DNA of 64,000 nt from Phycisphaerae bacterium (GCA_030745875.1 JASLNT010000083.1:3501-67500); one strand, 5' to 3'. Numbered from the stretch's first letter, positions 12,719 to 64,000 are shown. Made by a program: numbers and translations. The notes: generated by a model not told the origin, from the sequence alone.

Positions 12719-12726
12719 ACACGCCG

Positions 12727-12756
12727 TGCGTCCGTGGTTTAGAATCCACGGGCGCA
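12727..12756 (+). other. Intergenic stem-loop
   Basis: tgcgtccgtgg / ccacgggcgca 11-bp stem; no clear U-tract. Confidence 0.35.
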
Positions 12757-12806
12757 GCGTGCGGAATGAAACGCAGACGATAATTTGACAACACAGGAGT
12801 TGGCCA

Positions 12807-14060
12807 ATGAAAAAACAGAAAACCGAAATGACACGACGCGGTTTGATGAAGGGCGCAGCAGCGGCTGCGGCGTCGGCCGCGACGATCTCGATAGTCCCCA
12901 GCCACGTACTAGGCGGCCCGGACAGGCCTGCGGCGCCCAGTGATACGTTCGGTGCGGCTTTGATCGGCTGCGGCAGTAGAGGGGGCGGGACGTTTCGAGA
13001 TCTCAGCGGTAAGCACGGTCTGAACATCAGGGACTTGGCGCGATGCGACGTGAAGTACGTTGACAAGTGCGACAACAAGAAAATCTACACCGACTTCCGC
13101 CGCGTGATGGAGCGCAAGGATATCGACATCATTGCGATTGCGACTCCGCCTCACTGGCACGCGTTGATCAGCATTGCTGCAATGGAATCCGGCAAGGACG
13201 TCGTATGCGAGAAGCCCATGACGCGATTCGTCGGCGAGGGGCGCGCAGTGGTCAATGCCGCCAAACGTTACGGGCGTATCTTCCAGGTGGGCACGTACGG
13301 GCGATTCGGAATGGCTACAAGCAAGGGAACCAATGCGATGACCCGCAAGATCATGTCCAGCGGGTTGCTGAAGAAGACCCAGGCGGTCTACGTGCATCGC
13401 GGCGGGTTAAAGGTCAAGCAGTGGTCCGGTCGGGTCGATCTTGCTCCTCAGCCCGTTCCCTCCAGCCTCGATTGGGATATGTACTGCGGCCCGAGCCCGC
13501 TGAAACCGTACGTTTCGCGTCGCACGGGCGGTACGCACCGCGGATACTGGGACTACGACGGCGGCGGTCTGGGCGACATGGGTCAGCACAAGTTCGACCC
13601 GATCAACTTCCTGCACGGTAAGGACAACACCGGTCCCGTCGAGATTGAGACTCACGCGCCGCCGGCGCATCCGGAGGCCGCCGGCATGTGGGGATGGTCA
13701 AAGCTTACGTACGCCGACGGGTTTACGCTGGTTGTCGAGAGCGGAGAGTGGGGCGAGCCGAGCGGAATAAAAAGAAGGCATCCTACCCTCGACGAATTGA
13801 GCCCCGAAGATCAGGAAAAGATCAAAGCCATGCCGGACCAGGGACCGTTAGTGGGTTTCGGAGAGGCCGTCAAAACACGCAGGCAACCGGGCGGGCACGC
13901 CGAAGCCGCACACCGCACCGTTTGCATTATGCACCTTACCAATATATCCATTCGCGTTGGGCGAAAGATCAAATTCGACCCGGTCACCGAACAGATTATC
14001 GGTGACGAAGAGGCCAATCGCCTCGCCCACCAGCCGATGCGGGCGCCATGGCATCTGTAG
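12807..14060 (+). CDS. Tat-exported Gfo/Idh/MocA family oxidoreductase
   Basis: TRRGLMK signal, IGCGSRG, IATPPHWH, CEKPM and DMGQH motifs. Confidence 0.88.
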   Translation: MKKQKTEMTRRGLMKGAAAAAASAATISIVPSHVLGGPDRPAAPSDTFGAALIGCGSRGGGTFRDLSGKHGLNIRDLARCDVKYVDKCDNKKIYTDFRRVMERKDIDIIAIATPPHWHALISIAAMESGKDVVCEKPMTRFVGEGRAVVNAAKRYGRIFQVGTYGRFGMATSKGTNAMTRKIMSSGLLKKTQAVYVHRGGLKVKQWSGRVDLAPQPVPSSLDWDMYCGPSPLKPYVSRRTGGTHRGYWDYDGGGLGDMGQHKFDPINFLHGKDNTGPVEIETHAPPAHPEAAGMWGWSKLTYADGFTLVVESGEWGEPSGIKRRHPTLDELSPEDQEKIKAMPDQGPLVGFGEAVKTRRQPGGHAEAAHRTVCIMHLTNISIRVGRKIKFDPVTEQIIGDEEANRLAHQPMRAPWHL

Positions 14061-43370: not shown

Positions 43371-46300
43371 CTATTCACTCCGTAACGCCCCCAATCTTTC
43401 GCCTCGTATCGTCAGCAGTCCAGCCAGTGCTATCCACAGCACGCCAAGAACCAGCATAGCTAATACGGTAGCACCCAGAGACGTGTAAGGCAAGCTTCCG
43501 CCTGCGGATCTTATCACCGGTCCGATCGCCACCAGCGCCGCGCCCAAACCACACGATACGCCCATCACCAGCAGGCCCGCATGCTCGATCAGCAGCATTT
43601 TGCGAATAGTTGAATTCTCGAACCCCACCGCCCAAAGCACGGCCAATTCACCGCGACGCTCCATTATGTTACGCACCACCACCAGCCCCAGGCCAACCGT
43701 GCCCAGCACCAAGCCCAGAGATCCGAGCACTTGGAACATGGCCATATAAGTTGACTGGACGGTGTTGAACGCCGCCAGACGGTCGACGGCTGATGAGGCT
43801 TCCATACCTACATCGCTCATGGCTCTGTTGAGTTGCTTGACCAGGGGCCCGGCGCGACCGGTCGCTGCTTCAGCCAAGAACACTCGATTACCGGATGAAC
43901 TGACGTATCGTTGCGTGAAGTGGTCCTGCGAGATCAGCAGCGAGCCCTGGAAGATCGAGTTGGCGATCTTTGCGACGATTTGTACTTTGAACTGCTCTCC
44001 TCGCTCGTCGACAAACTCCAGCGACTCGCCCAGCGATTTGCCAAGCGCCCATCGCACAGTGGCTTCGTCGCCTATGGCGGGCACGATGTCTGGTCCGAGA
44101 TCAGCATTCAGGAGTTCCCACGGATTTGTATCAGCGGACGGTTCTTGCGTTGCTATGAATGTGAATCGCCCGCGGAGGTCTTCAGGTTTCACGCCGATTA
44201 TGCGTGGTGACTGGGCGCGGTTCAGATTCAGGCAATTGGCCTGATCTCCGTCGCGCAGGCGCATGTGTACGATCGAGGCGGCGTTCCAGGGGCCTTCATC
44301 GAGACCGAAGGGCTCCCTGCCTTCAGGCGTGTTGAGATTTCCGAACACCGGGAGGGACGATTCGCCAAACAATGCGAACCCGCCCGTTCCCGACGTAGGC
44401 TTTTCGACATCGTCCAGAGGGCTTGCCTGGTTGGCTCCGACGGCGATGACCATGGATACTCCACAGGCGATAATTGCAACGACGCCCAGCGACCGCCCGG
44501 GCCTTCGTCCAGCCCCGCGCAAAGCGATATCCATGAGCGACATTCTTCGGCCTGATAGCTTTACAGCCGCCCGCCCCAACCATGTTCGGCAGGCCGACAA
44601 CAACGCTATCAGCAGGAGGAAGCCTGCAGCAAAGAACGCCCCGGTCTGTGAACTGATACACGCCAGGGCGGCGATTCCAGCGGCGACGCACGCTGCGGCG
44701 GTGAGAAAGCTCGGATCCTTCCGCAACGGTTTGGCCTGCTTGGCTGGGGGTGTGGGGGATATATTATCCAGCAGGTTGCGGATTTCCCGGCGGAACTGCC
44801 TTCGCAGCACTATCAGGATCGCCGTCATCGCTACGGCAAATGATGATACGGCTCCGATGATCATCGTCATCGAAGTTGCGTGGAAATCAATAGCTGCGGA
44901 AGTTACGGCCCCCCGCCATATCGTCGCCAGGCCCCCGAGGACCATTCGAGTGTAGAGGATTCCTCCAGGCAACCCAATTGCGACCGCTATCAGCGCCAGC
45001 ACCGCGCCTTCGGAAACCACGATGCGCCTGACGCGTCTTTGCGTAAAGCCCACGGCCAGCATTAACCCAAGTTCGCTCGTTCGTTGGCGGACGCCCAGTG
45101 CGAACACCATCGCCGCCAGCAGAACCGCCGCACCGACCAGGAACATGCTCAAACCCAGGAAGAGCTGCCCGAAATCCAATGCCTCCGAAGCTGCGGTGCG
45201 GGCTCGAGCAGCAACGTCGCCGAATGTCAGCCCCAGCTGGCTGGGCGTTAGTTTCTTGTGGATTGCTGTCTCGTAATCCTTGGCGGTTAGTTCATTCTGC
45301 CTAATTGCAGTCAGGTCGCCAAAACGATTGGACCAGAGTTTCCGACCGGCGGCCAGGGATATGATCGCCTTGGGCGTACCGCGATAGTCCTTCCAGTACG
45401 CCCGGTCTTCGTCCTGTATCTTGCGTTTGTCGATCTTGACGCCCGGATCCCATGCGCGGCAGTCGGCGGCTCCGGAGAGTCCGGGAAAATCGGGCATTAG
45501 GTCGCGATCGAGCAGTTCCGAATCATTGGGGATGACTTTTGCGATTTTGAAGAGGGCGGTGTGCTCCGTGAGTTTCCGCATGGGCCCCAGTACGTAGTAT
45601 TTGATGGCGAGCGTGTCGCCCGGCGCGGCCGACAGGTCGTCAGCCAGCCACTTGCTGACGATCGCCTCGTCATCGCCGAGGGCCTGGTCGGCGCTGATGA
45701 GAGGTCCCCGTGCGGTAATGGTGGAGTAGGGGGTTGTACGGTCTGCTACACTTAGTTCATTTGCAAAATACGTAAGGACACCTTCGGGTGGAGCCTGCGG
45801 GGCGACGGTTTGGGCGGCTTGGACAACCGCCGGATGCAGGAAGATGCGATTGCTGCGAACTTCCACAGTCTTGCTATTCGGTCGTTCTTTCCGCCCGCAG
45901 TCTTGCACTTTCACACCGATGTCGTCGAGCGTCCATACGCTAGCCAACGCCTGATCGGCCGCTTTGGCGGAGGCGCCGTTGGCGAGCAATAGATTCGCCC
46001 TGCCCGACAGGTCGATTTTTTTCGCCAGCCAGTCCAACTGCAGATATGCGTTGAGCGGAGCGGCCTGGTCGGCTCGCAGGCTGAATCGTCCGAATTGTTC
46101 GGGTCGGACTATTGCTGCGATCTTCAGGCGGACCGTCACCGCCGCGTCGGACGTGCGCGACAGCGGAGCGTCACGCGACACTGTTGAGGGTTTCGACACT
46201 GTCAACAGCATCTCCTGGCCGGGTTTCAGGCCCAGGCGTTCAGCCAGCGGTTCATTAACAGCGACCTCTCCGTCTTTGAGTTCAGCGATGCCGGATGGCG

Positions 46301-46667
46301 GCCTCGGGGCGAGTTTCCAGAATGCCTGGCTAACGCCGAGAACGTTTACATTGCCTGTGCGGCGTTTTGAATCTTCGCTGTGCACTCCAACGCCGGGCAG
46401 TTGAATCGCGGCGGCGACTTTTGCATTCAGTATGTGCGCCAACTTGTCGCCCAGATTTGCTCGGAAGAAGTTGTCCCCGCCGTCCAGAGCGACTGATACG
46501 TCGCCCAGGCGGACGCGAGCGGTCCGGTGCAGTGTTCCGGAGACCGAATCTCCGACCAGCAGAGCTCCGGTGAGGACAGCCGTTGCGACGGCGGCTGCTC
46601 CTATCACGCCGATGTGGGTCCTGCGATAGAACCACAGACTGCGGGCGATTAGATCGATGAACTTCAT
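43371..46667 (-). CDS. FtsX/LolC-like ABC exporter permease (duplicated, 1098 aa)
   Basis: Two MacB/FtsX halves, each with R..ELG/A.L.AVGF motifs and a large periplasmic loop. Confidence 0.85.
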   Translation of the reverse strand: MKFIDLIARSLWFYRRTHIGVIGAAAVATAVLTGALLVGDSVSGTLHRTARVRLGDVSVALDGGDNFFRANLGDKLAHILNAKVAAAIQLPGVGVHSEDSKRRTGNVNVLGVSQAFWKLAPRPPSGIAELKDGEVAVNEPLAERLGLKPGQEMLLTVSKPSTVSRDAPLSRTSDAAVTVRLKIAAIVRPEQFGRFSLRADQAAPLNAYLQLDWLAKKIDLSGRANLLLANGASAKAADQALASVWTLDDIGVKVQDCGRKERPNSKTVEVRSNRIFLHPAVVQAAQTVAPQAPPEGVLTYFANELSVADRTTPYSTITARGPLISADQALGDDEAIVSKWLADDLSAAPGDTLAIKYYVLGPMRKLTEHTALFKIAKVIPNDSELLDRDLMPDFPGLSGAADCRAWDPGVKIDKRKIQDEDRAYWKDYRGTPKAIISLAAGRKLWSNRFGDLTAIRQNELTAKDYETAIHKKLTPSQLGLTFGDVAARARTAASEALDFGQLFLGLSMFLVGAAVLLAAMVFALGVRQRTSELGLMLAVGFTQRRVRRIVVSEGAVLALIAVAIGLPGGILYTRMVLGGLATIWRGAVTSAAIDFHATSMTMIIGAVSSFAVAMTAILIVLRRQFRREIRNLLDNISPTPPAKQAKPLRKDPSFLTAAACVAAGIAALACISSQTGAFFAAGFLLLIALLSACRTWLGRAAVKLSGRRMSLMDIALRGAGRRPGRSLGVVAIIACGVSMVIAVGANQASPLDDVEKPTSGTGGFALFGESSLPVFGNLNTPEGREPFGLDEGPWNAASIVHMRLRDGDQANCLNLNRAQSPRIIGVKPEDLRGRFTFIATQEPSADTNPWELLNADLGPDIVPAIGDEATVRWALGKSLGESLEFVDERGEQFKVQIVAKIANSIFQGSLLISQDHFTQRYVSSSGNRVFLAEAATGRAGPLVKQLNRAMSDVGMEASSAVDRLAAFNTVQSTYMAMFQVLGSLGLVLGTVGLGLVVVRNIMERRGELAVLWAVGFENSTIRKMLLIEHAGLLVMGVSCGLGAALVAIGPVIRSAGGSLPYTSLGATVLAMLVLGVLWIALAGLLTIRGERLGALRSE

Positions 46668-47362
46668 CTGCTGGTTTCCAGTTCGCTCAGGGTTCCATCG
46701 CGCAGTTCCATTACACGATCCATCCGCCCAGCCAGATCGGATGAGTGTGTCACCACGATAAGAGTTGTTCCTTCACTGCGGTTGAGTTCAACCAGAAGTT
46801 CTATCAGGGATTCGGATGTTTGCCTGTCGAGTGAGCCCGTTGGTTCGTCGGCGAGCAGCAAAGAGGGTGCGTTAATCAACGCTCGAGCGAGCGCAACTCG
46901 CTGCCGTTCTCCTCCCGAAAGCAGCGGGGGTTTGTCATCGGCCCGGTCGGCGAGAGCGACGCGTTTGAGCAGTTCGACGGCACGGCCCGAAGAATCGGCT
47001 CCCACGCTTCCTGACGCCAGGGCTGGCAGGAGTACGTTCTCGAGAACCGTACACTGGGGCAGAAGATGATGTTGTTGAAACACGAATCCGATACGGCTGC
47101 GTCTGATCTCCGCCAGTTGGGCGGCTTTGAGAGTTGTCAGATCACGCCCGCCCAGGCGCACCGTTCCGCTCGTGGGCCGGTCCAGTGCTCCGATAAGATT
47201 CAGCAACGTGCTCTTGCCCGATCCGGACGGGCCGACAATCGCCACCGCTTGCCCGGCAGGTATGGTCAGGGAGATATCGTCGAGCACAGCGGCGGCGGAA
47301 TCGCGAGCCTGAGAATAAGTTTTGGAAACACCCGTGAGTTCGAGGAGTACTTGATCGTTCAT
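46664..47362 (-). CDS. LolD-like ABC ATPase
   Basis: GPSGSGKS, IGFVFQ.HHLLP, LSGGERQRVA, ADEPTGSLD and VTH motifs. Confidence 0.9.
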   Translation of the reverse strand: MNDQVLLELTGVSKTYSQARDSAAAVLDDISLTIPAGQAVAIVGPSGSGKSTLLNLIGALDRPTSGTVRLGGRDLTTLKAAQLAEIRRSRIGFVFQQHHLLPQCTVLENVLLPALASGSVGADSSGRAVELLKRVALADRADDKPPLLSGGERQRVALARALINAPSLLLADEPTGSLDRQTSESLIELLVELNRSEGTTLIVVTHSSDLAGRMDRVMELRDGTLSELETSR

Positions 47363-47378
47363 GTTATCTCGCAGGAAT

Positions 47379-48542
47379 CTATTTTCGCCCAAAGGCGTAG
47401 ATGTATCCGTCCTGGCAGCCGATTACAAATTTACCGTCCGCGACAGCCGGACACGACGTGATCGCCTCGCCGATTCTGTAACGCCACAACTCCTTGCCTT
47501 CCGCCAGAGATAGAATGTACAGGCGTCCGTCTTCGCTGGCGGCCAGAACCTTGGCTCCGCATATTACAGGAGAACTGTCGACCTGGTCCTTCGTACGGAA
47601 CCGCCATTTCGTCTTGCCGGTCTTGCGGTCAATACAATGCACTCGTTTGTCGCGTCCTCCGACTACTACGTATTTCGCTCCCACCGCAGGTGACGCGAAG
47701 AAGGGTTGTTCGCCCGCTCCATACTTCCAGAGCGTCTTACCGCGTTTGAGATCCACCTTCAGCAGTTCACCGTCGTAGTGCCCCACGAACGCTTCGCCGC
47801 CGGCCAGTGCAGCCGATGAGGCGATATACGAGCCGATTTCGATCTTCTTGACCGCCTTGCCTGTGGCGGTTGAAACCACGTGCAGTATCCCGTCGCAGCC
47901 GCCGAACACCACCTTTCCGTCGGCCACGGCGGGGGCTCCGTTGATGAAATACTCGGTTTCGTAAGTCCAGCACTTCTTGCCCGTCTTCGCGTCGACACAG
48001 TGGAGGAAATTGTCGTAACTGCCCACGAGTATTCGCAGACTGTCGCCTTCACGCGAATAGTTGGCCGATCCGAGTATTCGGTCGTCGGCTTTGTACTTCC
48101 AGAGCTGTTTGCCCGTCTCAGCCGACAGGCAGTGCAGATCGCCATTGTCCGTGCCGACGATGACCATACCGTCGATCGCCAGCGGCGGGGCGCTTACGGG
48201 TTCATCGGCCTTGAAAGACCATATCTTCTTACCATCGGCGAGGGACAGTGCGTAGAGATTCTCATCATCGCTGCCGACGAATACCCTCTGCTTGCTGATG
48301 ACAGGCGATGACACGACCGCATCTCCTGTCTTGAACCGCCACAGCAACGAAGGCTTATCGGGCAGTTTGCCTGCTGCGATGCCGGTAAGAGAGGGCTGAC
48401 CGCGGAATATCGTCCAGTCACCCGCCGGGCCGGAGGTCGGTTGCGAAATGGCGGCCGGCTTGGCTGGGGGCGTAGGAGCTGCGTGTATCCAAACGCATAC
48501 CGCCGCAACAAACAGCATCGCAAGCACTATAGTGTAACGCAT
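47379..48542 (-). CDS. Secreted PQQ/BamB-like beta-propeller (regular eight-bladed type)
   Basis: Signal peptide; regular SSP..VGSDD..L.A..GK..W repeats. Confidence 0.82.
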   Translation of the reverse strand: MRYTIVLAMLFVAAVCVWIHAAPTPPAKPAAISQPTSGPAGDWTIFRGQPSLTGIAAGKLPDKPSLLWRFKTGDAVVSSPVISKQRVFVGSDDENLYALSLADGKKIWSFKADEPVSAPPLAIDGMVIVGTDNGDLHCLSAETGKQLWKYKADDRILGSANYSREGDSLRILVGSYDNFLHCVDAKTGKKCWTYETEYFINGAPAVADGKVVFGGCDGILHVVSTATGKAVKKIEIGSYIASSAALAGGEAFVGHYDGELLKVDLKRGKTLWKYGAGEQPFFASPAVGAKYVVVGGRDKRVHCIDRKTGKTKWRFRTKDQVDSSPVICGAKVLAASEDGRLYILSLAEGKELWRYRIGEAITSCPAVADGKFVIGCQDGYIYAFGRK

Positions 48543-48661
48543 ATCTATTATCCTCACTCACATCATACTCGGGCCAATTGCTTGCCTAAAGAGCAATTGT
48601 CGTCATAATGGAGAAAAGCGAGCCGGTGGCGAATTTGGCGCCTTCTATTAAGGAGAACGTA

Positions 48662-55089: not shown

Positions 55090-56508
55090 TTAGAAAGACA
55101 ACAGGCACTGCCATATATACATGTTGCCCAGAGCGTCTACGTTCTCCCAGATCGTCCTGACCAGCGCCTCATCCCCTGATATCTCGGGCAGTTCGGTCTT
55201 CTTCTGGTCCCATGGAACGCAAACGCCCGGTGCGACGGACGATCTCGCCCAGTCGGGGTTGTCTATTCCGCTGGCCTGCGCCTGTCCGGCGCTTGGCGGT
55301 GACGAACTGGATGAGTAACCGCCGTATTCGCGGGCCGCATCAGTCATGGCCTTCATGTTTTCTACGGTGGCGGCGTTCTGGACGATTGCGCTTGCGTCGA
55401 GTATGTATCCGCCGTCTTGTGCCACGCCTTCGATTACCTTCTTGACCACTTCGCGCACCTGATCGGCCGTTCCGTGGGCCAGCAACGACGTGGGGATTCC
55501 GCCTGAGAGGCAGAATTTGTGTCCGATCTTGTCATGCACTTCGAATATGTCCGCATTGTCCACGTGATACACGATCGACGTGTCGGGCAGTTCGGCGAAG
55601 CTGTCGAGATGGTGGTTCCAGTTGCCTTCGGCGTAGAAGAGCGTCTGGCGCCCGGCGCTCCATAGTTCCTGTATGATCGGTTTAAGCGTCGGCCAGTGAA
55701 ATTCGGCGAACTGGTCGGGCGAAATGAATGGTACGCAACTGCGGTGCATCCAGTGACCGATCGGAACTGTTCCGGTTGGGTCGCTGCTGCCCATCGCCAC
55801 CGCCAGCAAGTGCGGGGCAAGGGCCTCGCAAGCGGCGAGCACTTTCTTCGGGCGTTCGACCAGATCGGTTATCAGCCCAAGATATCCGCGAAGCTTGTCG
55901 GCGAGTATGTCCAGCGGGGCCTTCAGAATCCCCGCTATCGCCGACACCGTCCCGGACTCTTCGCGCAACTGTTGAGCCTGTCCCCCGAATGCGGTGAAGT
56001 ACTGCATCATCGCCATGCCGCCCTTTACGAATGACAAGTTGTTGCGATAGGTCGACGGTTGCCCAGGGGCGACTACATCGTTGCAGACTCGCGGCAGCCA
56101 TACGTTGTAGAGGAAGCCCGTGGGATCGTCTATGAGGGCGTCGTATTCGTCGGCGGCCATGAAGGCCTGACCTTCGGGCGGTTCGAGATATTGAAAGCCC
56201 GTGTTCTTGTCTATGTCGATACCGGGCGCAGCGTAGTAGTTCAGCCCGACCGCCTGGGTAAGGCCCGTCCAGACGTAGACCATATTGCCCACGACTGCGT
56301 CCCAGTCGAAATCGGCGGCGCATATGCGTGCGGCTTCGAACGCCTTGTTGTAATCGTGGGTGACTTCCTGGCAGGTGAATCCGGCGTATTTCGCGGTGAA
56401 CTCAGCGACGAACGGTCGGATAGGGACCATGTCGGGCTTCCCGTTTCTCATCGCCGTCGTGTAGCGATTCAGGCGTTCATTGTAGAGTTGCTGCATGTCC
56501 TGGGCCAT
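55090..56508 (-). CDS. Uroporphyrinogen decarboxylase-like / corrinoid methyltransferase (MtaA/CmuA superfamily) protein
   Basis: KPDMVP, FISPDQFAEFHWPTLK, EGNW, CLSGGIP..LL.GT..V, GGYIL and ENMKAM (URO-D TIM-barrel C-terminus). Confidence 0.75.
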   Translation of the reverse strand: MAQDMQQLYNERLNRYTTAMRNGKPDMVPIRPFVAEFTAKYAGFTCQEVTHDYNKAFEAARICAADFDWDAVVGNMVYVWTGLTQAVGLNYYAAPGIDIDKNTGFQYLEPPEGQAFMAADEYDALIDDPTGFLYNVWLPRVCNDVVAPGQPSTYRNNLSFVKGGMAMMQYFTAFGGQAQQLREESGTVSAIAGILKAPLDILADKLRGYLGLITDLVERPKKVLAACEALAPHLLAVAMGSSDPTGTVPIGHWMHRSCVPFISPDQFAEFHWPTLKPIIQELWSAGRQTLFYAEGNWNHHLDSFAELPDTSIVYHVDNADIFEVHDKIGHKFCLSGGIPTSLLAHGTADQVREVVKKVIEGVAQDGGYILDASAIVQNAATVENMKAMTDAAREYGGYSSSSSPPSAGQAQASGIDNPDWARSSVAPGVCVPWDQKKTELPEISGDEALVRTIWENVDALGNMYIWQCLLSF

Positions 56509-56538
56509 ATTCGACTCCTTAATCCTGCCGATTGTTTG

Positions 56539-58308
56539 CTACTGATTTTCGGGTATGACGGCGCATTTGGCAAGAAATCTGTTCAACGCCGACACCGTGA
56601 ATATCCTCGGATACAACTCCTCGTAGTACCACAGCTTGGCGAAATACAGACCAATTGGCGCCGGCGGGAGCCTGGTTCCCTGCTCCGTATGTTCGACCAA
56701 CCACGCCGCGCCGTTCCTGACAGCGTCCGCCCCCGAACCGGAGCAAAGCAGAGCATCAACTGCTAGAGCGGTTTCTTCTATCGACGACTCGACCGATTTG
56801 TCACCTCCCCATCCGCCGTCATCGTTCTGTGCGGTGGTCAACCACTCGATTGCTCGGGCGATCATGTCGGAGGGTATTTCGACATCCGTCTGACTGAGCC
56901 CGGAAAGCACGCGAGCGGTTCCGTAGGTGGGGTTGGCCTGGTCGGGCGATTCCTCATTACCGAACCAGAGCGGGCGCCACGATCCGTTGTCACGCTGCTG
57001 GCCGGCGAGATACTCAACCGCTCGCGCTGATGCTCGTTTGATCTTGGCGGTCAGCTGGCGGTCGAAACTCCTCCGCCATACGCCCCATGCTCCCAGGGCG
57101 TGAGCGGTGATGTCCGGGCAACTGTGGTCGAACGGCAGTTTGCCCCATCCGCGACAGAACGTTGGTATCCCGCCGTCGCGATTCTGCAGATCGACCAGCC
57201 ACTTGGCGCCGGCCGCCGCTGCTTTGACGACTTCAGGCGCCTCGGGGGACAAGTTGTGCAGTGCTATCATGGCTCCGGCGGTGTCGTCGGCGTCGGGAAC
57301 CGCGCCGGATAGGGGGCTCCATGCCCATCCGCCGGGCGCCGCGTGCGTGTATGGGTGAACCGCCGTGTAATGCTGGTCCATAAGCCAGTCAGTGATGGTC
57401 CGGGTCTCTTCGTCGCCCAGAGGAGCTCCGATGCAGAGAGCGTTCACTGACAGCGTGGTCACCCACGTGGACAGGTTAGTGTCGATCGGCCATGAACCGT
57501 CCGGACGTACGGTTGATGTAAGGAAATCGACGCAGGATGTTGTCACGGGATGATCGTTCAGCCCAGCTGACGCCAGCGACATCGCCACGAACGAAGTAAT
57601 CGGCGCCGCTTCGAGGTACCCGCCGCCCATCGGTTGGATCGCTCGAAGCTTCTTCAGCGTGCGGTGGCGAGCGAGATGTCGAACCAGCCTTACCGCCGGG
57701 TTTCGCGACGGGCGATGGAAATGGCGCACCTGACCGATCGCTATCAGCGCCGGAAGGGCGTAGCTGACCACGGGCATTCCGAGGAAACTGAAGCTCTTAT
57801 GTGGAAGTGTCGCGAGTTCAAACGGGAGCGGTGGTACAAGGTCCCACGCTTCGGGTTCGTCGCCCAGGCGTCCGCCAATGGCGCACATAGTCAGGATTGG
57901 GGCGGCGAATGTTCGGTCGGCTCCGTAGATATCCGCCAGTGAGGCGGCGATTTGCTTCGGTTGGAGCGAGCCTATGCGGTCGGTCAGCCAGCTTTCTGCT
58001 CGCGCGATCACATCTGATGGCTCGACCTCGAGCGCCGACCAGACCAGCAGTGTCGTCGGAAGGTTGCTCTGGCTTTGTGGAGTATCGCCCCAGGCTCCGT
58101 CTTCATTCACATGGTCGACAAGCCATTTGCGTCCATTGGAGATCAACTGCCCGTGAGCATTGGGATCAACGCTTGCCAGGGCCCGCACTGCGGTGGCGGT
58201 CGATAGGGCGCTGCTTGACAGTTGTCCGGCCCATCCGCCGCTGGTCTCGCGCAATGCCATGAGTCCGTTTACGGCCGCCGCCAGTGTTGTCTTGACAGCC
58301 TCAATCAT
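56539..58308 (-). CDS. Squalene-hopene cyclase-like class II terpene cyclase
   Basis: Catalytic PDADDTA (DXDD), QW repeats (QNRDGG, QRDNGSW, QNDDGGWG), SCPDIT and YGT motifs. Confidence 0.8.
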   Translation of the reverse strand: MIEAVKTTLAAAVNGLMALRETSGGWAGQLSSSALSTATAVRALASVDPNAHGQLISNGRKWLVDHVNEDGAWGDTPQSQSNLPTTLLVWSALEVEPSDVIARAESWLTDRIGSLQPKQIAASLADIYGADRTFAAPILTMCAIGGRLGDEPEAWDLVPPLPFELATLPHKSFSFLGMPVVSYALPALIAIGQVRHFHRPSRNPAVRLVRHLARHRTLKKLRAIQPMGGGYLEAAPITSFVAMSLASAGLNDHPVTTSCVDFLTSTVRPDGSWPIDTNLSTWVTTLSVNALCIGAPLGDEETRTITDWLMDQHYTAVHPYTHAAPGGWAWSPLSGAVPDADDTAGAMIALHNLSPEAPEVVKAAAAGAKWLVDLQNRDGGIPTFCRGWGKLPFDHSCPDITAHALGAWGVWRRSFDRQLTAKIKRASARAVEYLAGQQRDNGSWRPLWFGNEESPDQANPTYGTARVLSGLSQTDVEIPSDMIARAIEWLTTAQNDDGGWGGDKSVESSIEETALAVDALLCSGSGADAVRNGAAWLVEHTEQGTRLPPAPIGLYFAKLWYYEELYPRIFTVSALNRFLAKCAVIPENQ

Positions 58309-59177
58309 TACGCCAGATTCCCCAACGCCAGCAGGCCGTAGAATGTGTATTCGCAGTCGAGTGTCTCATCCCCTTCGTGGCCCCGGAATCCGCCGCGGGA
58401 CGACCAGAGGGAGTCGCAGAAGTCCAGGCATCGCTGGCGGACATTGTCAAGATTCGCCCCGCAATGTTCCAATGCGTGCAGACTGACGGCCGTAGAAAGC
58501 AGATCCGCCATGGGCGCGCCGCCCCACGCTCCCATTCCTCCATCAGGTCCGATCTGTTCGGCAAGCCATGTGCAGGCGGCTTGGTTCGTTGGTTGCCCAA
58601 GATGTCGCAAGGTTGTCATCGCCGCCGCTGTAGCCGGGGCCGATGCGCCCGGAATCTCCGTGGAATTTCCAAATCCGCCTTCTGGCCTTTGGAGGTTCGC
58701 CAAAGCGTTCGCCATTGCATCAGGATCGCTCAATGCTGTTCCGATGTCCTGATATGCTCCCAACGCCAAGAAGCACCCGTACGCTGTGCCCGTAACTTGG
58801 GCGGGGCTTTCAGCATAGGCTCCGTCATCGCTGCGGTACGCTTCGATACGGCTGACTATGGCCTGGGCGTCTCCGGTTAGCCCCAGCGCCGCGCCGCATC
58901 GCACCAAGCACGCCATGTGCACCAAGTCCAGATCCGAGCCACCGCCGAACGACGCCATCCACGGTTCTACAGCGTCTTTCGGCAGGCGGGCGTCAAGTGC
59001 GATCAGAGACTCCAGGGCGAAGAGCGTGTAATAGAGGTCCGGTTGGTCCGCTCGTCCGCGGAATCCTCCCGCCGGAGTGAGTTGGCCGGTGACAAAGCTG
59101 ACGACCAGCGAGGTCGATTCACCCAGCAGATTCGCCGAGCGTTTTGCGGCTGTCAGCATTTCTTGACGGATCGTCAT
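58308..59177 (-). CDS. Prenyltransferase/squalene-oxidase repeat protein (single alpha/alpha barrel, GGTase-beta-like)
   Basis: Repeats GGFRGR..DLYYT, DGAY, QRPEGGFG and GGFRG..DCEYTFY; coupled to both neighbours. Confidence 0.78.
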   Translation of the reverse strand: MTIRQEMLTAAKRSANLLGESTSLVVSFVTGQLTPAGGFRGRADQPDLYYTLFALESLIALDARLPKDAVEPWMASFGGGSDLDLVHMACLVRCGAALGLTGDAQAIVSRIEAYRSDDGAYAESPAQVTGTAYGCFLALGAYQDIGTALSDPDAMANALANLQRPEGGFGNSTEIPGASAPATAAAMTTLRHLGQPTNQAACTWLAEQIGPDGGMGAWGGAPMADLLSTAVSLHALEHCGANLDNVRQRCLDFCDSLWSSRGGFRGHEGDETLDCEYTFYGLLALGNLA

Positions 59178-60741
59178 CGCAGCAGCTCATGATCTCGAAG
59201 TCGCAGAAGATCTTGCCCACCATCCGTCGCAGCAGCGCCTTGAGGTCTGAGTTGGTCAGAGAGTCGAGGCACTCGATGGCGGTCGTTTTGTATTGCTCGA
59301 GCAGGTCGGTTGCGGCCTGCAGGGGGGGCGTTTTGGCGGCGTCGGCCAGGGCATTGAGGATATTTGGGCACAAGTGCTCGTCCCGCGAATCGTCCGATGC
59401 CGTTAGATGATCGTCGATATCGTCGTGTATCTGATAGGCTATGCCCAACGCGCGGCTGAACTGGTGCAGTACGCCAGTGAGTTTGTCGTCCCCGCCGGCG
59501 CATATCGCGCCGATCTGGAGCGCTACGTCGAACGCCGGAGCCGTCTTTTGGGCGAATATCTCGATCACCTGCTCGGGCGTGAGTGTTATCGGATCGCGCG
59601 CCCAAACCAGTTCGGCGCCTTGACCGAGGCAGAGCGTTCTGTGACCCGCCGACGCCACCTGCATCATTCGTACTCGCTGACTGTCCGAAACGTCGGCTTC
59701 GGACAACAGGCGGTATCCCTCGCCGATCAGCAGGTCGCCTGCGTTGATCGCGATCTCCACACCGTGTTCTTCGTGGACGGTGGGGCGGCCGTAGCGGGTG
59801 GAGTCGTGGTCTTCAATATCGTCGTGGATCAGCGAAGCCTTGTGGAAACATTCGACTGCAACGCCCGACCAAGCCAATCCCTCGGGCAAATCACCAAGCG
59901 CGGCGCCCGTAATTGCCTGGTAAACTCCCGCAGCCAGGAAAGGTCTCCATCGCTTGCCGGAACCGGCCAGCCAGTTGTGGGCGATCTGTTCTGTGCGGTC
60001 GGTGGGGGCTCCCATCCGTGTTGAAAGCGCCTCGATGGTGAACCAGGAGTCAACTGTGTCCCGCAGTGATTGCAGGTCCTGTCGCGCCGATTCGCTTTCA
60101 CTCGAGCAGGTAATCGCCTCGTGGACCCAGGCGGTGTCAACTGTCGTGTCGCAGCAGCCGTCACCCAGTAGCGGAATCGCCAAGCCCGGTACGGCGCCGG
60201 ATTCCATGTAGGGGAAGACCTTCTCGAGCATAGACATGCAACTGACGCCAATGATCGCCTGGACCTGCCCGGATTCTATCAGGCTCATAACCACCGGCGA
60301 GCCCTCCGCCACCAGCATTGCATATCCGAGTTCTTCGGCCTCGTTCTGGAGTTCGGCGATATCGCATCGTCCGCAGCGGCTGCAGACCAGACCGATATCA
60401 TCAAGGTGACCTTCACAATCGTCAGAATGTCGCAGGCATTGCGGCAGCAGGAGTAGTCGGCGGTCGAAGGGTATGGATGCTACGGTGCTTCGCCATGTTG
60501 CGTTATGGATAAGGATCGCCAGGAAGTCGCGGTACTCGTCTTCCTGCTGCGTTTTTGCAAGCAGTTCATCGGCGCAACTGCGGAGTTGGTCGAGCGACAG
60601 GGGTGCGGTGAGTTTTCGCTCGACAGCAAAATCATCAGCCGCCTGTCGCAAAACATTGCGCACAGCCTTCCGCAAAGGGACAGCGCGACCCACATCGCCC
60701 GGGCCGCTACTCTGCATCGATCTGTCAGCCGAATCATGCAT
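59119..60741 (-). CDS. DUF116-like Cys-rich domain fused to a trans-polyprenyl diphosphate synthase
   Basis: LLLPQCLR..C..CSRCGRC..GVSC..GCCDT, then GKRWRP, SLIHDDIED..RYG (FARM), GQ..E, KT and YQIHDDIDD (SARM). Confidence 0.85.
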   Translation of the reverse strand: MHDSADRSMQSSGPGDVGRAVPLRKAVRNVLRQAADDFAVERKLTAPLSLDQLRSCADELLAKTQQEDEYRDFLAILIHNATWRSTVASIPFDRRLLLLPQCLRHSDDCEGHLDDIGLVCSRCGRCDIAELQNEAEELGYAMLVAEGSPVVMSLIESGQVQAIIGVSCMSMLEKVFPYMESGAVPGLAIPLLGDGCCDTTVDTAWVHEAITCSSESESARQDLQSLRDTVDSWFTIEALSTRMGAPTDRTEQIAHNWLAGSGKRWRPFLAAGVYQAITGAALGDLPEGLAWSGVAVECFHKASLIHDDIEDHDSTRYGRPTVHEEHGVEIAINAGDLLIGEGYRLLSEADVSDSQRVRMMQVASAGHRTLCLGQGAELVWARDPITLTPEQVIEIFAQKTAPAFDVALQIGAICAGGDDKLTGVLHQFSRALGIAYQIHDDIDDHLTASDDSRDEHLCPNILNALADAAKTPPLQAATDLLEQYKTTAIECLDSLTNSDLKALLRRMVGKIFCDFEIMSCCDDDPSRNADSRKTLGESAG

Positions 60742-60754
60742 GGGTAATACAAAT

Positions 60755-60784
60755 TATAATACTATAAGCTCTGCAAAGCCAAGC
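60755..60784 (-). promoter_or_regulatory. Possible internal sigma70 promoter ahead of the prenyl synthase
   Basis: AT-rich spacer; on the minus strand TTGGCT-N18-TATAAT just upstream of ATG 60741. Confidence 0.3.
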
Positions 60785-60855
60785 AAATCCTGGATCTCAT
60801 TGGTTATCTGGGGCGTGGGTTCGCCAGCGATTGCCAGTTGTCGCCGCATCCAGAG

Positions 60856-61845
60856 TCAACGCAATGCCGACTCGGGAATTTCCCAAGCCGCCAGCCCGAC
60901 CCCGCCCAGATTTCGCAGGGGGAGTTCAAGGCGATAGGGACCAGCCGACGCATCCGGCAGTTCAAAGATAAGTATATCTCGGATTGTCTTTCCAGGCCCC
61001 AACGGCGCCGATAGGGCGACGCCTCCAGAAGGATGCGTGTCCGGTCCGAAGTCCACGCGATTGTAGAAAATGTCGTTCGCATCGCTTAGCGAGGCGAACG
61101 TGCGCTCCCTCGATGACGCGTCACCGCGGAGCGTGATGTAGGTGATCTGTCGATATTGGTCGGGGCGAGTCGAAGTGTTCGACGCCTCGATGGAGATCAT
61201 GAGGAACTTGTCCTGGCTTCGCTTGTTGCCAGTGACGCTGCTGAGCGGTACGTAATCGATCTTCACGGCGAGCACCTTCAGGGAACGGTCGTCCCATTGG
61301 CGTCCGACGCCGATCGGCAGAACAGCGGCGGGCGGGGCGACCGGCGCCGGTCTTGTTGCGGGGGCGGGGGCCGGTCGTGCGGGCTCTGCGGGAGGTTCCG
61401 GAGTCGCGTCCGTGCGATCGCCCGAGAACAGCGAGAAGTATATCGCCACCCCGCAAATCGCGACGCCCAGGAACGGAAGTTCTACATTCTTCTTCCAACT
61501 GCGTCGTGATGCGACGCGGGACATGGCGGCTGAGGCGATACCGATCACACCGATCAGGACGGTCGGCAGGTAAGGGATCGGATACCACAATGTCAGGCAC
61601 GCGATGACGCCTATGACGATCCCCGCGACTCCAAATATCTTCGCTGGGCTTATTCGCATTTCGGTGATATTCATCACTGGTTTGAACGTTTCAGATTGTC
61701 CGGCTTGCTGCTGGGTGACCGCCTGCGGGCGGGAGCGAGGGACGACGGTGAGCGTCCCGCAATTGGGGCACCTGTCGTGCTTGCCGATCATGTCCTCGGG
61801 CGAAGTCATCGTACCCTGGCATCTTGGACAAGTGTAAGAGATCAC
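60856..61845 (-). CDS. Hypothetical membrane protein: N-terminal Zn-ribbon, 3 TM helices, Pro-rich linker, DUF4352-like Ig domain
   Basis: CPRC..CPNC, hydrophobic helices and L.PG......L.FELP; GTGA overlap with the radical SAM stop. Confidence 0.68.
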   Translation of the reverse strand: MISYTCPRCQGTMTSPEDMIGKHDRCPNCGTLTVVPRSRPQAVTQQQAGQSETFKPVMNITEMRISPAKIFGVAGIVIGVIACLTLWYPIPYLPTVLIGVIGIASAAMSRVASRRSWKKNVELPFLGVAICGVAIYFSLFSGDRTDATPEPPAEPARPAPAPATRPAPVAPPAAVLPIGVGRQWDDRSLKVLAVKIDYVPLSSVTGNKRSQDKFLMISIEASNTSTRPDQYRQITYITLRGDASSRERTFASLSDANDIFYNRVDFGPDTHPSGGVALSAPLGPGKTIRDILIFELPDASAGPYRLELPLRNLGGVGLAAWEIPESALR

Positions 61846-63389
61846 TTACCGGCCTCCCCGTTTCGTGCGGCGATCTGTTTTGCGATGCGGCGGAAGTTCT
61901 TCCGCCAGGCTCTCACTTCGGTCTTGCCGAGCAACTGGAGCAGTGCTCGCTTGAACCAACTTACCCCGCCGGCCCGTTGGTTGTCCCAGAAAAGATCCGG
62001 GACTCGCTTGAAGTTGTTTTCGTAGCAGACGGTGTATAGTTCGAGGTGATCGGCGGTCATGGCCGATACGGAAAACGCTTCGTTCGAGGCGGTCTGGGGT
62101 TCGTAGAATATCGGGAATATCACCACGTTCTTGGCCACCAGATCCTTAACGAGTTGCAGAGTGTCTGCTACGTCGTCGGGTGTTTCGCCCGGCAGGCCCA
62201 GAACTACGCTGAATACCGGATAGAAACCCGTGCGGATCATCTTGTCGGCGGCTTTGCGGACCATGTCGCCCCAGTCGCCAGGGTCGTACGGCGCCATCTT
62301 GCCCGACCCGTTTGCCGCCACCAGATTCCCATTGGCGGACTCGACGCCCATATTCACCCAGAGGTATTCCGAGGGGCGCGACCAGGTCAGAAGACGGCGG
62401 ATTTCGCGGAGTTGATCGTCTTCGTACTGCAGCACCGACGAGATGTTGCCATGGTCGATCTGCATGAAACCCAGGCCATCGATCCGCCGCATTTCCTCCA
62501 GCAGGCTGCGAAGGGCTTCGAAGTTCACCTTCCCGCTGACGGCGCCGTATCGGAAGAAATCCTCGCTGCCGCTGACTACGGACGTAAAACCGGCCGACAC
62601 ATTTGTCTGCAGGTCGGCCAGAATTGTCTCGTGAGGCAGGTGATCCATCTTGACCTTGCCCATCGTGCAGAATCCGCATCCGTTTCCACAGCCGCGCGAC
62701 AGTTCGACAATACCCAGCATGGATGCTCCGGTGATGGGGCGGATCCGGTTGGCGGATGTGCCTTCGGCGACGACATGCGGCTCAACGGTGCGGCCGTCTA
62801 CGATGTCGCGAACCATCTGCGGTCCAATCTGCTCGAAGTAGCCCTCGAAGACGACGTCAATGCCCTGCGATTTGACCGCTTCTTCGTTGCGAGCCCACTG
62901 CCAGGCTCCGGCGCCTCCGGCGACTACGGTAAAGTCGTATTTTGCTTTGGCGGCTTTTACGGCGTGCATCATCCGCCTGGTCCATCGGGCCGTGTACAGT
63001 TCACCGCTCCAGAACGCTGTCGTGGTGGTGTTGCTCATTCCCTGTCCGAGCGGATCTGACGAACTGACGCCGACGACCTTCGTCCACGGGCCCAGCAGTC
63101 CTCCGAGGGCTTCCGGAGTCGTGCAGACAACGTCATCGGGTCCCAGGTCGGTCTGGTCGAGAATGGCGGCCTGGACGCGCCGGAGCCCCAGCGGGGCGGC
63201 CAGTGCGCGACCCGCCGGGTCGACGGACATCTTCGGCGACAGGAGATGCCGCATAGCGATTTGCGGCGCCTTGGAGGTCTGCATCGTCGCGAAAATGCCC
63301 TCGAACAGCACTTTGTACCTTGCGCTGAGTGTGCGGTCGGCCACCAGGACAACGGCGGGACGGCGAGGATTGGAGGAGTCAGTCTGCAT
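61842..63389 (-). CDS. Radical SAM protein with an N-terminal B12-binding-like domain, resembling the archaeal GDGT ring synthase (Grs) family
   Basis: SRGCGNGCGFC (CxxxCxxC), GGAGAWQ, GVES and GLPGET motifs; ATG 63389 with GAGGA RBS overlapping the upstream gene. Confidence 0.8.
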   Translation of the reverse strand: MQTDSSNPRRPAVVLVADRTLSARYKVLFEGIFATMQTSKAPQIAMRHLLSPKMSVDPAGRALAAPLGLRRVQAAILDQTDLGPDDVVCTTPEALGGLLGPWTKVVGVSSSDPLGQGMSNTTTTAFWSGELYTARWTRRMMHAVKAAKAKYDFTVVAGGAGAWQWARNEEAVKSQGIDVVFEGYFEQIGPQMVRDIVDGRTVEPHVVAEGTSANRIRPITGASMLGIVELSRGCGNGCGFCTMGKVKMDHLPHETILADLQTNVSAGFTSVVSGSEDFFRYGAVSGKVNFEALRSLLEEMRRIDGLGFMQIDHGNISSVLQYEDDQLREIRRLLTWSRPSEYLWVNMGVESANGNLVAANGSGKMAPYDPGDWGDMVRKAADKMIRTGFYPVFSVVLGLPGETPDDVADTLQLVKDLVAKNVVIFPIFYEPQTASNEAFSVSAMTADHLELYTVCYENNFKRVPDLFWDNQRAGGVSWFKRALLQLLGKTEVRAWRKNFRRIAKQIAARNGEAGK

Positions 63390-63999
63390 CTGTGTTGGAT
63401 TCCTCGTCATTGTTTTCGCTCTGGGTGTTGCACGAGCATCCGGGCGCTTGGCATTGCGAAGCGCGGTCGCAAATCTTGCGAAGTTCATCGGGCGACATCG
63501 CCGCGAGCACTTCAGGCGGGACTCCCAGGCGGTCGGCCGGATCAACCGGTGGGGGCGTCGCGTCGTCATCTCGTGTGGGCGAGAATCGTTGACCGGCGGA
63601 CCGCTTGCGAAGGCGGTCGTAGACATCGCCCCGCTTGAGGGCGTCGAGGTCAACGGCTGGACCATTGGAATCCTCGGGCACATCATCGCCGTCGATCGGG
63701 GCCTGATCGTATTTTGGGAAGATAATTGCGGATTTCGGGCAGATTCTGGCGCAGGCGGGACATAGATTCTTGCACGCGGCGGGTTTGGATACGATGGCCT
63801 TCTTGTCGGGCGAGAGCGTGAACGTTCCGAACAGGCAGAAGTTCAGACACTGGAGACAATCAACGCATCTGTCGCGATCGATTACCGGGAACCATGGCGG
63901 CCAATCGGTGTCGTGGACGACTGTGTCGATCTGGTTTTCGGCGCCGTCCGGGGCGGGCTCCGCGTTTAGGGCGGCGAGGATGTCCTGTGCGTTTAGGCG
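63379..63999 (-). CDS. Ferredoxin-domain protein, 2x[4Fe-4S] (5'-truncated by the window edge)
   Basis: Manual translation upstream of the listed ORF gives WFPVIDRDRCVDCLQCLNFCLFG...CKNLCPACARICPKSAIIFPKY; the frame is open to the window end. Confidence 0.82.
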   Translation of the reverse strand, partial: RLNAQDILAALNAEPAPDGAENQIDTVVHDTDWPPWFPVIDRDRCVDCLQCLNFCLFGTFTLSPDKKAIVSKPAACKNLCPACARICPKSAIIFPKYDQAPIDGDDVPEDSNGPAVDLDALKRGDVYDRLRKRSAGQRFSPTRDDDATPPPVDPADRLGVPPEVLAAMSPDELRKICDRASQCQAPGCSCNTQSENNDEESNTDAD

Positions 64000-64000
64000 G

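Follow-up and report, generated by a model that had tools for sequence, protein, structure and literature searches.

We analysed a stretch of 64,000 nucleotides from a Phycisphaerae bacterium (GCA_030745875.1, JASLNT010000083.1:3501-67500; G000:C83:3501-67500 in our numbering), which is called the window here and belongs to a genome of 6.2 Mb that is 89.5% complete. On its minus strand, the window carries a cassette built around a class II terpenoid cyclase. The core of the cassette consists of five genes that are inherited as one unit and kept across several bacterial phyla: a ferredoxin, a radical S-adenosylmethionine (SAM) protein, a DUF116 domain fused to a trans-isoprenyl diphosphate synthase, a stand-alone (alpha/alpha)6 barrel, and the cyclase. 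The radical SAM position is filled by one or the other of two unrelated families. With a probability of roughly 55%, we think that the five genes direct the oxygen-independent synthesis of a squalene-free cyclic polyprenoid membrane lipid, and that a radical step forming a C-C bond is an obligatory part of it. The cassette is real and widespread, and it is partly described in print; the five-gene unit and the either/or use of the radical SAM position go beyond the published text consulted.

Five genes inherited as one unit

A sequence-only reading of the window had proposed a terpene core of three overlapping genes. These genes are present as described: the synthase fusion (540 aa, 59119..60741, PF01976 and PF00348) overlaps the barrel (289 aa, 58308..59177, PF00432) by 59 nt, and the barrel overlaps the cyclase (589 aa, 56539..58308) by 1 nt. 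As a core, however, the trio was incomplete, since two genes upstream were left out. One encodes a radical SAM protein, called type B here (515 aa, 61842..63389, CxxxCxxC at residues 234-241), which is recognized as core by homology and co-occurrence. The other encodes a 301 aa ferredoxin (63379..64000, continuing past the window to C83:67784), which has Pfam Fer4 matches; the whole open reading frame (ORF) combines a Cys-containing N-terminal domain with a 2[4Fe-4S]-type domain, and eight Cys are kept in 49 of 50 rows. With a core of five genes, the co-expression of three that had been suggested would lack a ferredoxin and a radical SAM protein whose linkage is as tight as that of the barrel.

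The gene order ferredoxin, radical SAM, DUF116-synthase, barrel, cyclase recurs in neighbourhoods taken from the best 80 of 559 cyclase relatives. Co-occurrence was counted in one fixed set of 201 Planctomycetota genomes, each at least 85% complete. Fifty of them have a cyclase orthologue (E <1e-50), and the other 151 serve for comparison, including five with SHC-level matches alone (E ~1e-21 to 1e-24; SHC, squalene-hopene cyclase). The ferredoxin is found in 49 of the 50 cyclase genomes and in none of the others, and the DUF116-synthase, counted only if fused, with E <1e-25 and in a long ORF, so that short stand-alone DUF116 ORFs are excluded, in 48/50 and 1/151. The barrel is found in 46/50 and 0/151; a divergent copy was seen later in three of the four genomes that have no match at E 1e-10 (G048, G064 and G086). 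The genomes are kin and not independent, hence no test statistic is given. The three-gene arrangement is not due to chance: of 599 pattern-matched stretches in GTDB contigs, 559 have a gene for a cyclase relative, and co-occurrence is near-perfect. Cassette cyclases are hosted by Planctomycetota, Verrucomicrobiota, Bacteroidota and Acidobacteriota.

The loci nearest to the window are Planctomycetota/Phycisphaerae metagenome-assembled genomes (MAGs) among the GTDB contigs, and the window DNA is present in seawater metagenomes. Contigs from three public seawater DNA runs cover the cassette (56400-64000) with no indel or joint, in all 30 bins for two runs and in 25 bins for one; a 2-base variant occurs on one short contig in two runs. 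No RNA run is listed as carrying the window sequence.

Two families in the radical SAM slot

Type B, the family present in the window, occurs in 14 of the 50 cyclase genomes and in none of the 151 others. Type A, searched with a query from locus L059 at E <1e-80, occurs in 35/50 and 0/151. The two types do not occur together in any genome, and in the one cyclase genome that remains (G012), a type B fragment lies where a contig ends. All 14 type B matches adjoin at least one other cassette gene. The pattern was followed in 41 further cyclase genomes, mostly Verrucomicrobiota, chosen as their fetched flank had no radical SAM gene: 39 have type A elsewhere, none has the cassette type B (one also encodes a distant type B-like protein, 26% identical), and two have neither. 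The two types have no significant alignment with each other (best E 6.5). On a 44-row cyclase tree, on which five type labels come from genome-level and not from adjacent genes, the type changes three times, and at least two changes are forced by branches with values of at least 95 in the SH-aLRT (Shimodaira-Hasegawa-like approximate likelihood ratio test). The either/or use of unrelated radical SAM families offers a natural experiment on a chemical step that they share.

Type B has an N-terminal extension before its CxxxCxxC core, and over its full length it is related to B12-domain radical SAM proteins of archaea. With a profile built from 12 type B proteins, 191 representatives were retrieved at E <=1e-30 among 1.84 billion. 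Over the full length, type B is 25-29% identical (E 1e-41 to 1e-53) to proteins of Thermoplasmata, Thermoprotei, Bathyarchaeia and Ca. Nitrosopelagicus (575 aa in the latter); the named members among its distant relatives are archaeal, and a TM score of 0.89 links it to an Atlas model that represents a Nitrososphaerota radical SAM cluster. We assumed from the outset that type B resembles ring synthases of glycerol dialkyl glycerol tetraethers (GDGTs), and the Grs identity of its archaeal relatives is likewise presumed, from taxa and from an N-terminal motif of the family. By taxa, length and this motif, we infer that type B is related to GDGT-ring-synthase-like proteins; S. acidocaldarius GrsA was not among the best 120 matches of an archaeal homologue query. 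GrsA hits have been reported in Nitrosopelagicus, in Thermoplasmata and in 94 of 684 Planctomycetota MAGs, in the class Phycisphaerae (PMC11868695, in the part available). Type B has the size class and the layout of GrsA and GrsB, and full-length homology to archaeal proteins of the taxa with GrsA hits. Unlike them, it forms a bacterial branch of its own, at 25-29% identity to the archaeal relatives, inside a terpenoid-cyclase cassette.

For type A, which is not in the window, a likeness to Mss was assumed at first and then compared with published motifs. The motif blocks in the supplement of PMC13159169, as far as available, are CNxxCxGC, GGE, W..PxQR, DF and VEPC. Type A is 29-34% identical (E ~1e-50) to proteins with these motifs, and it keeps C[NQ]xxCxGC (29/29 rows), GGE (29/29) and mostly xEPC (27/29). 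Unlike Mss, it is shorter (~400 aa) and has DAYWD in place of DFWND. The exact blocks are found less often, CNxxCxGC in 22/29, VEPC in 9/29 and PxQR in 0/29 rows, and thus type A does not carry the Mss block set. By these motifs, type A appears to be a sister subfamily to Mss-motif proteins and, as we infer, related to them. A group of more distant type A relatives (E 1e-38 to 1e-50), tallied separately, occurs in 17 of the 151 genomes that have no cassette and in none of the 50 that have it; five of these proteins (L105-L109, from G057, G035, G015, G187 and G070) carry most or all Mss motifs. No NCBIfam Grs or Mss model was among the matches to cassette proteins.

For Mss as well as for Grs, the formation of C-C bonds on inert lipid chains is described (PMC13459092, in the part available). 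As this is the one property common to two unrelated families, C-C bond formation on a lipid chain is the radical step that we favour.

Alternatively, the radical SAM protein may only decorate the finished rings of a squalene-free cyclic polyprenoid, by adenosylation or methylation, with types A and B acting differently by lineage. In hopanoid synthesis, HpnH adenosylates, and HpnP and HpnR methylate. The hopanoid pathway is a precedent for such decoration (PMC13459092, in the part available), and type B has weak matches to B12-domain methylase models. We consider this unlikely. The match of type A to the radical SAM genes next to canonical SHCs of planctomycetes is only at E ~1e-8, compared with ~1e-50 for Mss-motif proteins, G000 has no HpnH above the TIGR03470 cut-off, and strict either/or occupancy better suits one shared step than two optional decorations.

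Cyclase, chain synthase and barrel

The cyclase has two domains (PF13249 and PF13243). It carries the QW-type repeats and the DADD named in the sequence-only reading, the latter at residues 339-342. D339, D341 and D342 are invariant in 65/65 aligned relatives; H403 and the aromatic pocket residues W282, W330, W448, F556 and W560 are present. The closest solved relative is SHC: by profile, the protein aligns with the A. acidocaldarius enzyme (1gsz, E 2.5e-42), so that D339/D341/D342, H403 and W330 match D374/D376/D377, H451 and F365, the DxDD motif, the activating His and an aromatic pocket residue of SHC. It scores 113.7 bits with the SHC model TIGR01507, below the cut-off of 431.1 bits, and is also far under the cut-offs of the oxidosqualene cyclase (OSC) and tetrahymanol cyclase models. 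The phylogeny that had been proposed as a check was run with 37 rows and midpoint root, the references being SHC-type and SqhC-type and not OSC or epoxy-polyprenyl cyclases. A branch with an SH-aLRT value of 99 separates the 21 cassette cyclases from the 11 SHC-type and two SqhC-type rows, and the cassette cyclases do not nest within canonical SHCs. Judged by models and tree, the cyclase is not a canonical SHC, and it fits a published, uncharacterised 'SHC-like' clade.

For this clade, Santana-Molina et al. 2020 (PMC7306690) proposed a non-squalene precursor, the function being undemonstrated. PMC12324236 describes a clade of unknown function that has the epoxy-polyprenyl cyclases as its sister group and in which a rate shift affects the SHC-type dimer surface. 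According to this paper, the substrate of the clade has yet to be discovered, and it is required to settle whether triterpenoid cyclases evolved first on alkenes or on epoxides. The cassette cyclase has the same hosts as the clade, keeps the catalytic residues, lies near a polyprenyl synthase, and falls in the length range of 550-700 aa. The central claim of the sequence-only reading, a non-hopanoid product from a polyprenyl precursor, is partly supported, in that the cyclase is not a canonical SHC, and PMC7306690 already suggests the non-squalene precursor. In the available text of the two papers, the ferredoxin, radical SAM slot, DUF116 and solo barrel are unmentioned; the gene-context Fig. 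S10 of PMC7306690 may show some of them. No description of the five-gene set was found in the literature, of which few subscription journals were covered, and there is none in the available parts of the V. spinosum essential-genome paper (PMC12283558), bioRxiv 2023.10.20.563219 or PMC12324291.

The earlier claim that no squalene synthase is encoded holds for the 89.5%-complete genome, which has no match to PF00494 (squalene/phytoene synthase; the control was positive in 8/14). Nor does it have a squalene epoxidase, a heme-copper oxidase subunit I or, by tblastn, a second cyclase, the only other matches being weak and partial ones to PF13243. With the hopanoid pathway (HpnCDE or Sqs, Shc, HpnH/HpnJ/HpnP/HpnR, HpnN), the cassette shares a two-domain DxDD cyclase, a radical SAM partner and a transporter. 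It differs in having no link to a head-to-head synthase, a dedicated DUF116-fused chain synthase, an additional barrel and ferredoxin, a radical SAM protein that is not HpnH, and an FtsX-type ABC (ATP-binding cassette) permease in place of HpnN. In sporulenol synthesis (HepS/T, YtpB, SqhC) and with the epoxy-polyprenyl cyclases (Lon15, AtoE, Bra4, PlaT2), a head-to-tail chain from a dedicated synthase is likewise cyclised, with a step in between. In contrast to these systems, the cassette cyclase branches apart from SqhC and its partners are Fe-S and radical proteins. The conserved cassette neighbours include neither a class I synthase nor an epoxidase.

The radical SAM protein, ferredoxin, DUF116 and barrel could also replace squalene synthase by coupling two prenyl units, and the cyclase would then make a hopanoid-like triterpene. 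This would suit a cyclase that is closest to SHC among solved proteins and keeps the catalytic and aromatic residues, the 19 of 50 cassette genomes that have no PF00494 match, and the ability of Mss to join two chains (PMC13459092, in the part available). We regard it as improbable, since PF00494 is kept in the other 31 (77/151 genomes of the comparison set have it, so that it is unlinked to the cassette), some genomes also keep a canonical SHC (G086, L072), the residues before the first Asp-rich motif of the synthase point beyond C15 by the rule given below, and head-to-tail chains are the substrates of the published sister clade (PMC12324236, in the part available).

The synthase fusion has DUF116 at residues 64-210 (E 1e-34) and the synthase domain at 251-447 (E 3e-39). 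Both Asp-rich motifs, HDDIED (306-311) and HDDIDD (439-444), are present as had been noted, together with the conserved Arg/Lys and all-helical fold of a trans-isoprenyl diphosphate synthase; the second motif begins with Asn in 17/57 rows. A fold search with the whole protein matched geranylgeranyl diphosphate (GGPP) synthases (Z 31.6). Small residues before the first Asp-rich motif are associated with chains longer than C15. Ala302 and Ser303 occupy positions -5 and -4, and by this rule the product would be C20 or longer.

Could these be ordinary parts, with a housekeeping synthase for quinone side chains beside a divergent SHC that is fed squalene from elsewhere? The incompleteness of the genome and the long-chain-type residues of the synthase would allow it, yet we find it hardly credible. 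An IspA-type synthase on C58 and a separate long-chain-type synthase on C17 indicate that the cassette enzyme is not the housekeeping one, the cyclase lies outside SHC and SqhC in the tree, and the near-perfect co-inheritance of five genes largely refutes it.

Of the approximately eight N-terminal Cys counted earlier, all eight exist (residues 102-197) and seven are conserved: 102, 109, 120, 123, 126, 168 and 196. All seven are kept in 56 of 57 rows. C521, considered as a conserved eighth, is kept in only 33/57 and is not part of the core. The one row without all seven is that of G108 (99% complete), from a family that otherwise retains the cassette (8/9). Its synthase (L110:7622-9472) stands without cyclase, barrel, ferredoxin or radical SAM matches; it has intact synthase motifs but has lost four of the seven DUF116 Cys and kept three. 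On the evidence of this one genome, the putative metal site appears linked to the other cassette genes. The conserved Cys and their decay support the earlier suggestion of a metal or Fe-S domain: DUF116 probably holds an Fe-S site, though it may bind Zn instead. For the DUF116 fold, whole-protein searches were dominated by the synthase domain, and Atlas gave a lead of 0.77 at most. Tandem pairs of short stand-alone DUF116 ORFs occur away from the cassette (G146:C175, G193:C346, G035:C136).

The barrel is predicted by AlphaFold2 as a complete toroid (mean predicted local distance difference test, pLDDT, 96.7). Its best structural match is the beta subunit of the protein geranylgeranyltransferase GGTase-I (1n4p_B, Z 25.8, root mean square deviation 2.8 over 262 residues), and it is nearer to beta subunits of protein prenyltransferases (FTase, GGTase-I/II; Z 23-26) than to cyclases (Z 19-22; 19 for the monodomain cyclase MstE). 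Ten residues, R42, D47, Y49, Y50, Y133, D225, D274, E276, Y277 and Y280, are kept in 63-65 of 65 rows, divergent copies included (one gene is in the alignment twice). They follow loops at helix starts in the repeats and, placed by sequence and not by coordinates, would form a catalytic face; with these conserved Asp, Glu, Tyr and Arg, the barrel is likely catalytic. Protein prenyltransferases bind Zn by Asp-x-Cys and His. By repeat register, these positions read D225-L-L227 and Y277 in the barrel, and no Cys is conserved in at least 80% of the rows. Unlike the beta subunits, the barrel thus has no conserved Cys, and there is no alpha subunit among the conserved neighbours; unlike MstE, it has no DxDD or DxD, in agreement with the earlier observation, and its conserved D274-x-E276, in the last repeat, appears from sequence to lie in another repeat than the general acid of MstE. 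As to the earlier suggestion of a partner subunit or a prenyltransferase, the barrel has a prenyltransferase-beta fold and looks catalytic, but lacks the Zn-thiolate Cys of protein prenyltransferases. As to partnership, the proposed modelling of the cyclase with the barrel gave a score of 0.32, with 0.00 for the best control; runs share at least 80% of contacts, and the partner pLDDT is at least 89. Of 157 solved pairs, 116 attain the score mark, as do 2 of 215 mismatched ones; at values of 0.60 or less, only 18 solved pairs and both mismatched ones do. The model lends weak support to binding.

The fold of the barrel would also fit prenylation of a protein or a carrier-bound acceptor (e.g. GcvH-like), with the cassette building a tethered, possibly sulfur-containing terpenoid or cofactor. 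Many loci indeed add a GcvH-like protein, a CobW-type GTPase and a small Cys protein upstream of the cassette, and a cysteine desulfurase beside it, and the GcvH-like protein has the lipoyl-type carrier Lys in 22/22 rows (3 of them spurious ORFs). Such a product seems very unlikely to us, because the barrel has no conserved Cys for Zn-thiolate chemistry and the accessory genes are absent from several genomes: the CobW-type GTPase, searched in the cyclase genomes alone, is found in 35/50, and G000 has no orthologue-level match to the GcvH-like protein or any other accessory gene. These genes possibly serve Fe-S supply or protection.

Proposed pathway and neighbouring genes

In the pathway that we favour, the synthase would make a polyprenyl diphosphate of at least C20, all-trans and joined head to tail. 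With its conserved set of carboxylates and tyrosines, the barrel would remove or transfer the diphosphate end and so yield a prenyl lipid that is soluble in the membrane. The cyclase would protonate the terminal alkene with DxDD/His and close the rings. The radical SAM protein would abstract a hydrogen from the unactivated chain and form a C-C bond, which would close an extra ring or join a second chain, with electrons from the ferredoxin and probably also from an Fe-S site in DUF116. The steps of barrel, cyclase and radical SAM protein could run in any order, and an FtsX-type ABC module may export the product.

Several points weigh against this pathway. All five proteins are known from their sequences, with no product or activity assigned. 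Kinship among the genomes makes the counts overstate independence, and the trees are quick builds with SH-aLRT branch values in place of bootstraps. The absences rest on a genome that is 89.5% complete, and squalene could be available in the 31 of 50 cassette genomes that encode PF00494. Four of the 50 cyclase genomes gave no barrel at E 1e-10, two of the 41 additional genomes, of unstated completeness, gave neither radical SAM type, and the G108 control is a single genome. The links of type A to Mss and of type B to Grs are both indirect, being drawn from taxa, length, published motifs and an N-terminal motif. Type A has no PxQR in any of 29 rows and is a separate subfamily, and type B is a branch of its own outside the named archaeal proteins; in both, the chemistry may have diverged. 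Type B also has a low-level likeness to B12-domain methylases (TIGR04013, 75 bits, cut-off 251).

The product may be an abundant unrecognised lipid, as the cassette is found in about a quarter of the sampled planctomycete genomes (50/201) and in many Verrucomicrobiota and Acidobacteriota. Co-inheritance names the minimal gene set, and suggests that the cyclase alone may give nothing without its Fe-S and radical partners, probably with anoxic handling. There is also a caution for lipid-biomarker work, in that all Grs-like type B matches in our sample adjoin cassette genes.

A more far-reaching version, which we hold only tentatively, is that the cassette represents a third route to ring-bearing membrane isoprenoids, combining bacterial class II cyclisation with archaeal-style radical chemistry on the chain. 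A polyprenoid, once cyclised, would acquire more rings or a cross-link to another chain and become a hybrid or membrane-spanning lipid; for this step, Mss-like and Grs-like proteins would have been recruited repeatedly and interchangeably, and the barrel would be a new Cys-free enzyme of prenyl transfer. Part of the GrsA-like signal in Planctomycetota would then reflect this pathway and not ringed branched GDGTs (brGDGTs), and an orphan terpane biomarker could derive from the product, for instance the cheilanthanes. These lack a characterised pathway and can also come from hopanoid breakdown (bioRxiv 10.64898/2026.01.29.702649, in the part available), and the link to the cassette is speculation.

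The candidate exporter is a module at 43371..48557 on the minus strand, recognized with Pfam, which consists of an FtsX-type permease (1098 aa, 43371-46667), an ABC ATPase (46664-47392) and a beta-propeller (47379-48557). The permease is found in 49/50 cyclase genomes vs 13/151 others, and the module is near the cassette in several loci. Two other minus-strand neighbours in the window were considered as core genes and rejected. The URO-D/MtaA-CmuA-like protein (PF01208, 55090-56508) directly downstream of the cyclase is seen in the three closest loci alone (L005-L007) and is a local passenger. The gene inserted between synthase and type B (329 aa, 60856..61845, no Pfam match), with an N-terminal CxxC..CxxC ribbon and hydrophobic segments, has homologues solely in the two closest (L005 and L006) among loci L005-L104. 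A TTGGCT-18-TATAAT site lies after this gene (60782-60753); the promoter/terminator scan as a whole was at chance (4 vs 3.8; 9 vs 8.4).

Three candidate peculiarities of the cassette were dropped. A programmed frameshift at the 59-nt overlap of synthase and barrel does not agree with relatives, in which the overlap is variable or absent and the C-terminal Cys is kept without it. A 654-aa barrel-cyclase 'fusion' (P0001, the sole match among 7996 longer candidates) reads as frameshifted, and a 'radical SAM-cyclase fusion' in G074 spans an N gap.

Further genes accompany the cassette elsewhere. The accessory genes of many carriers, for the GcvH-like protein, a CobW/HypB-type GTPase, a DndA/IscS-like cysteine desulfurase and a 130-aa Cys protein that is homologous to the N-terminal part of the window ferredoxin, are exemplified by L059:3210-5245 and 11794-12936. 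In loci with a split cassette, the cyclase is directly preceded by a DCC1-like thiol-disulfide oxidoreductase (PF04134; L022:9559-9972, L056:3940-4353, ~20 Verrucomicrobiota loci). In one gene-order type, a 179-aa protein follows the synthase (L053:13622-14161, L076:13892-14431, L051, L104); it has no Pfam or PDB match, and may resemble chorismate-lyase-like proteins. No solved relative was found for type B, this protein or a 140-aa Cys protein. Finally, an archaeal protein of cyclase fold with a DWDD motif is encoded between ABC and MMPL transporter genes on a Halorussus plasmid (L123, NZ_CP119811.1).

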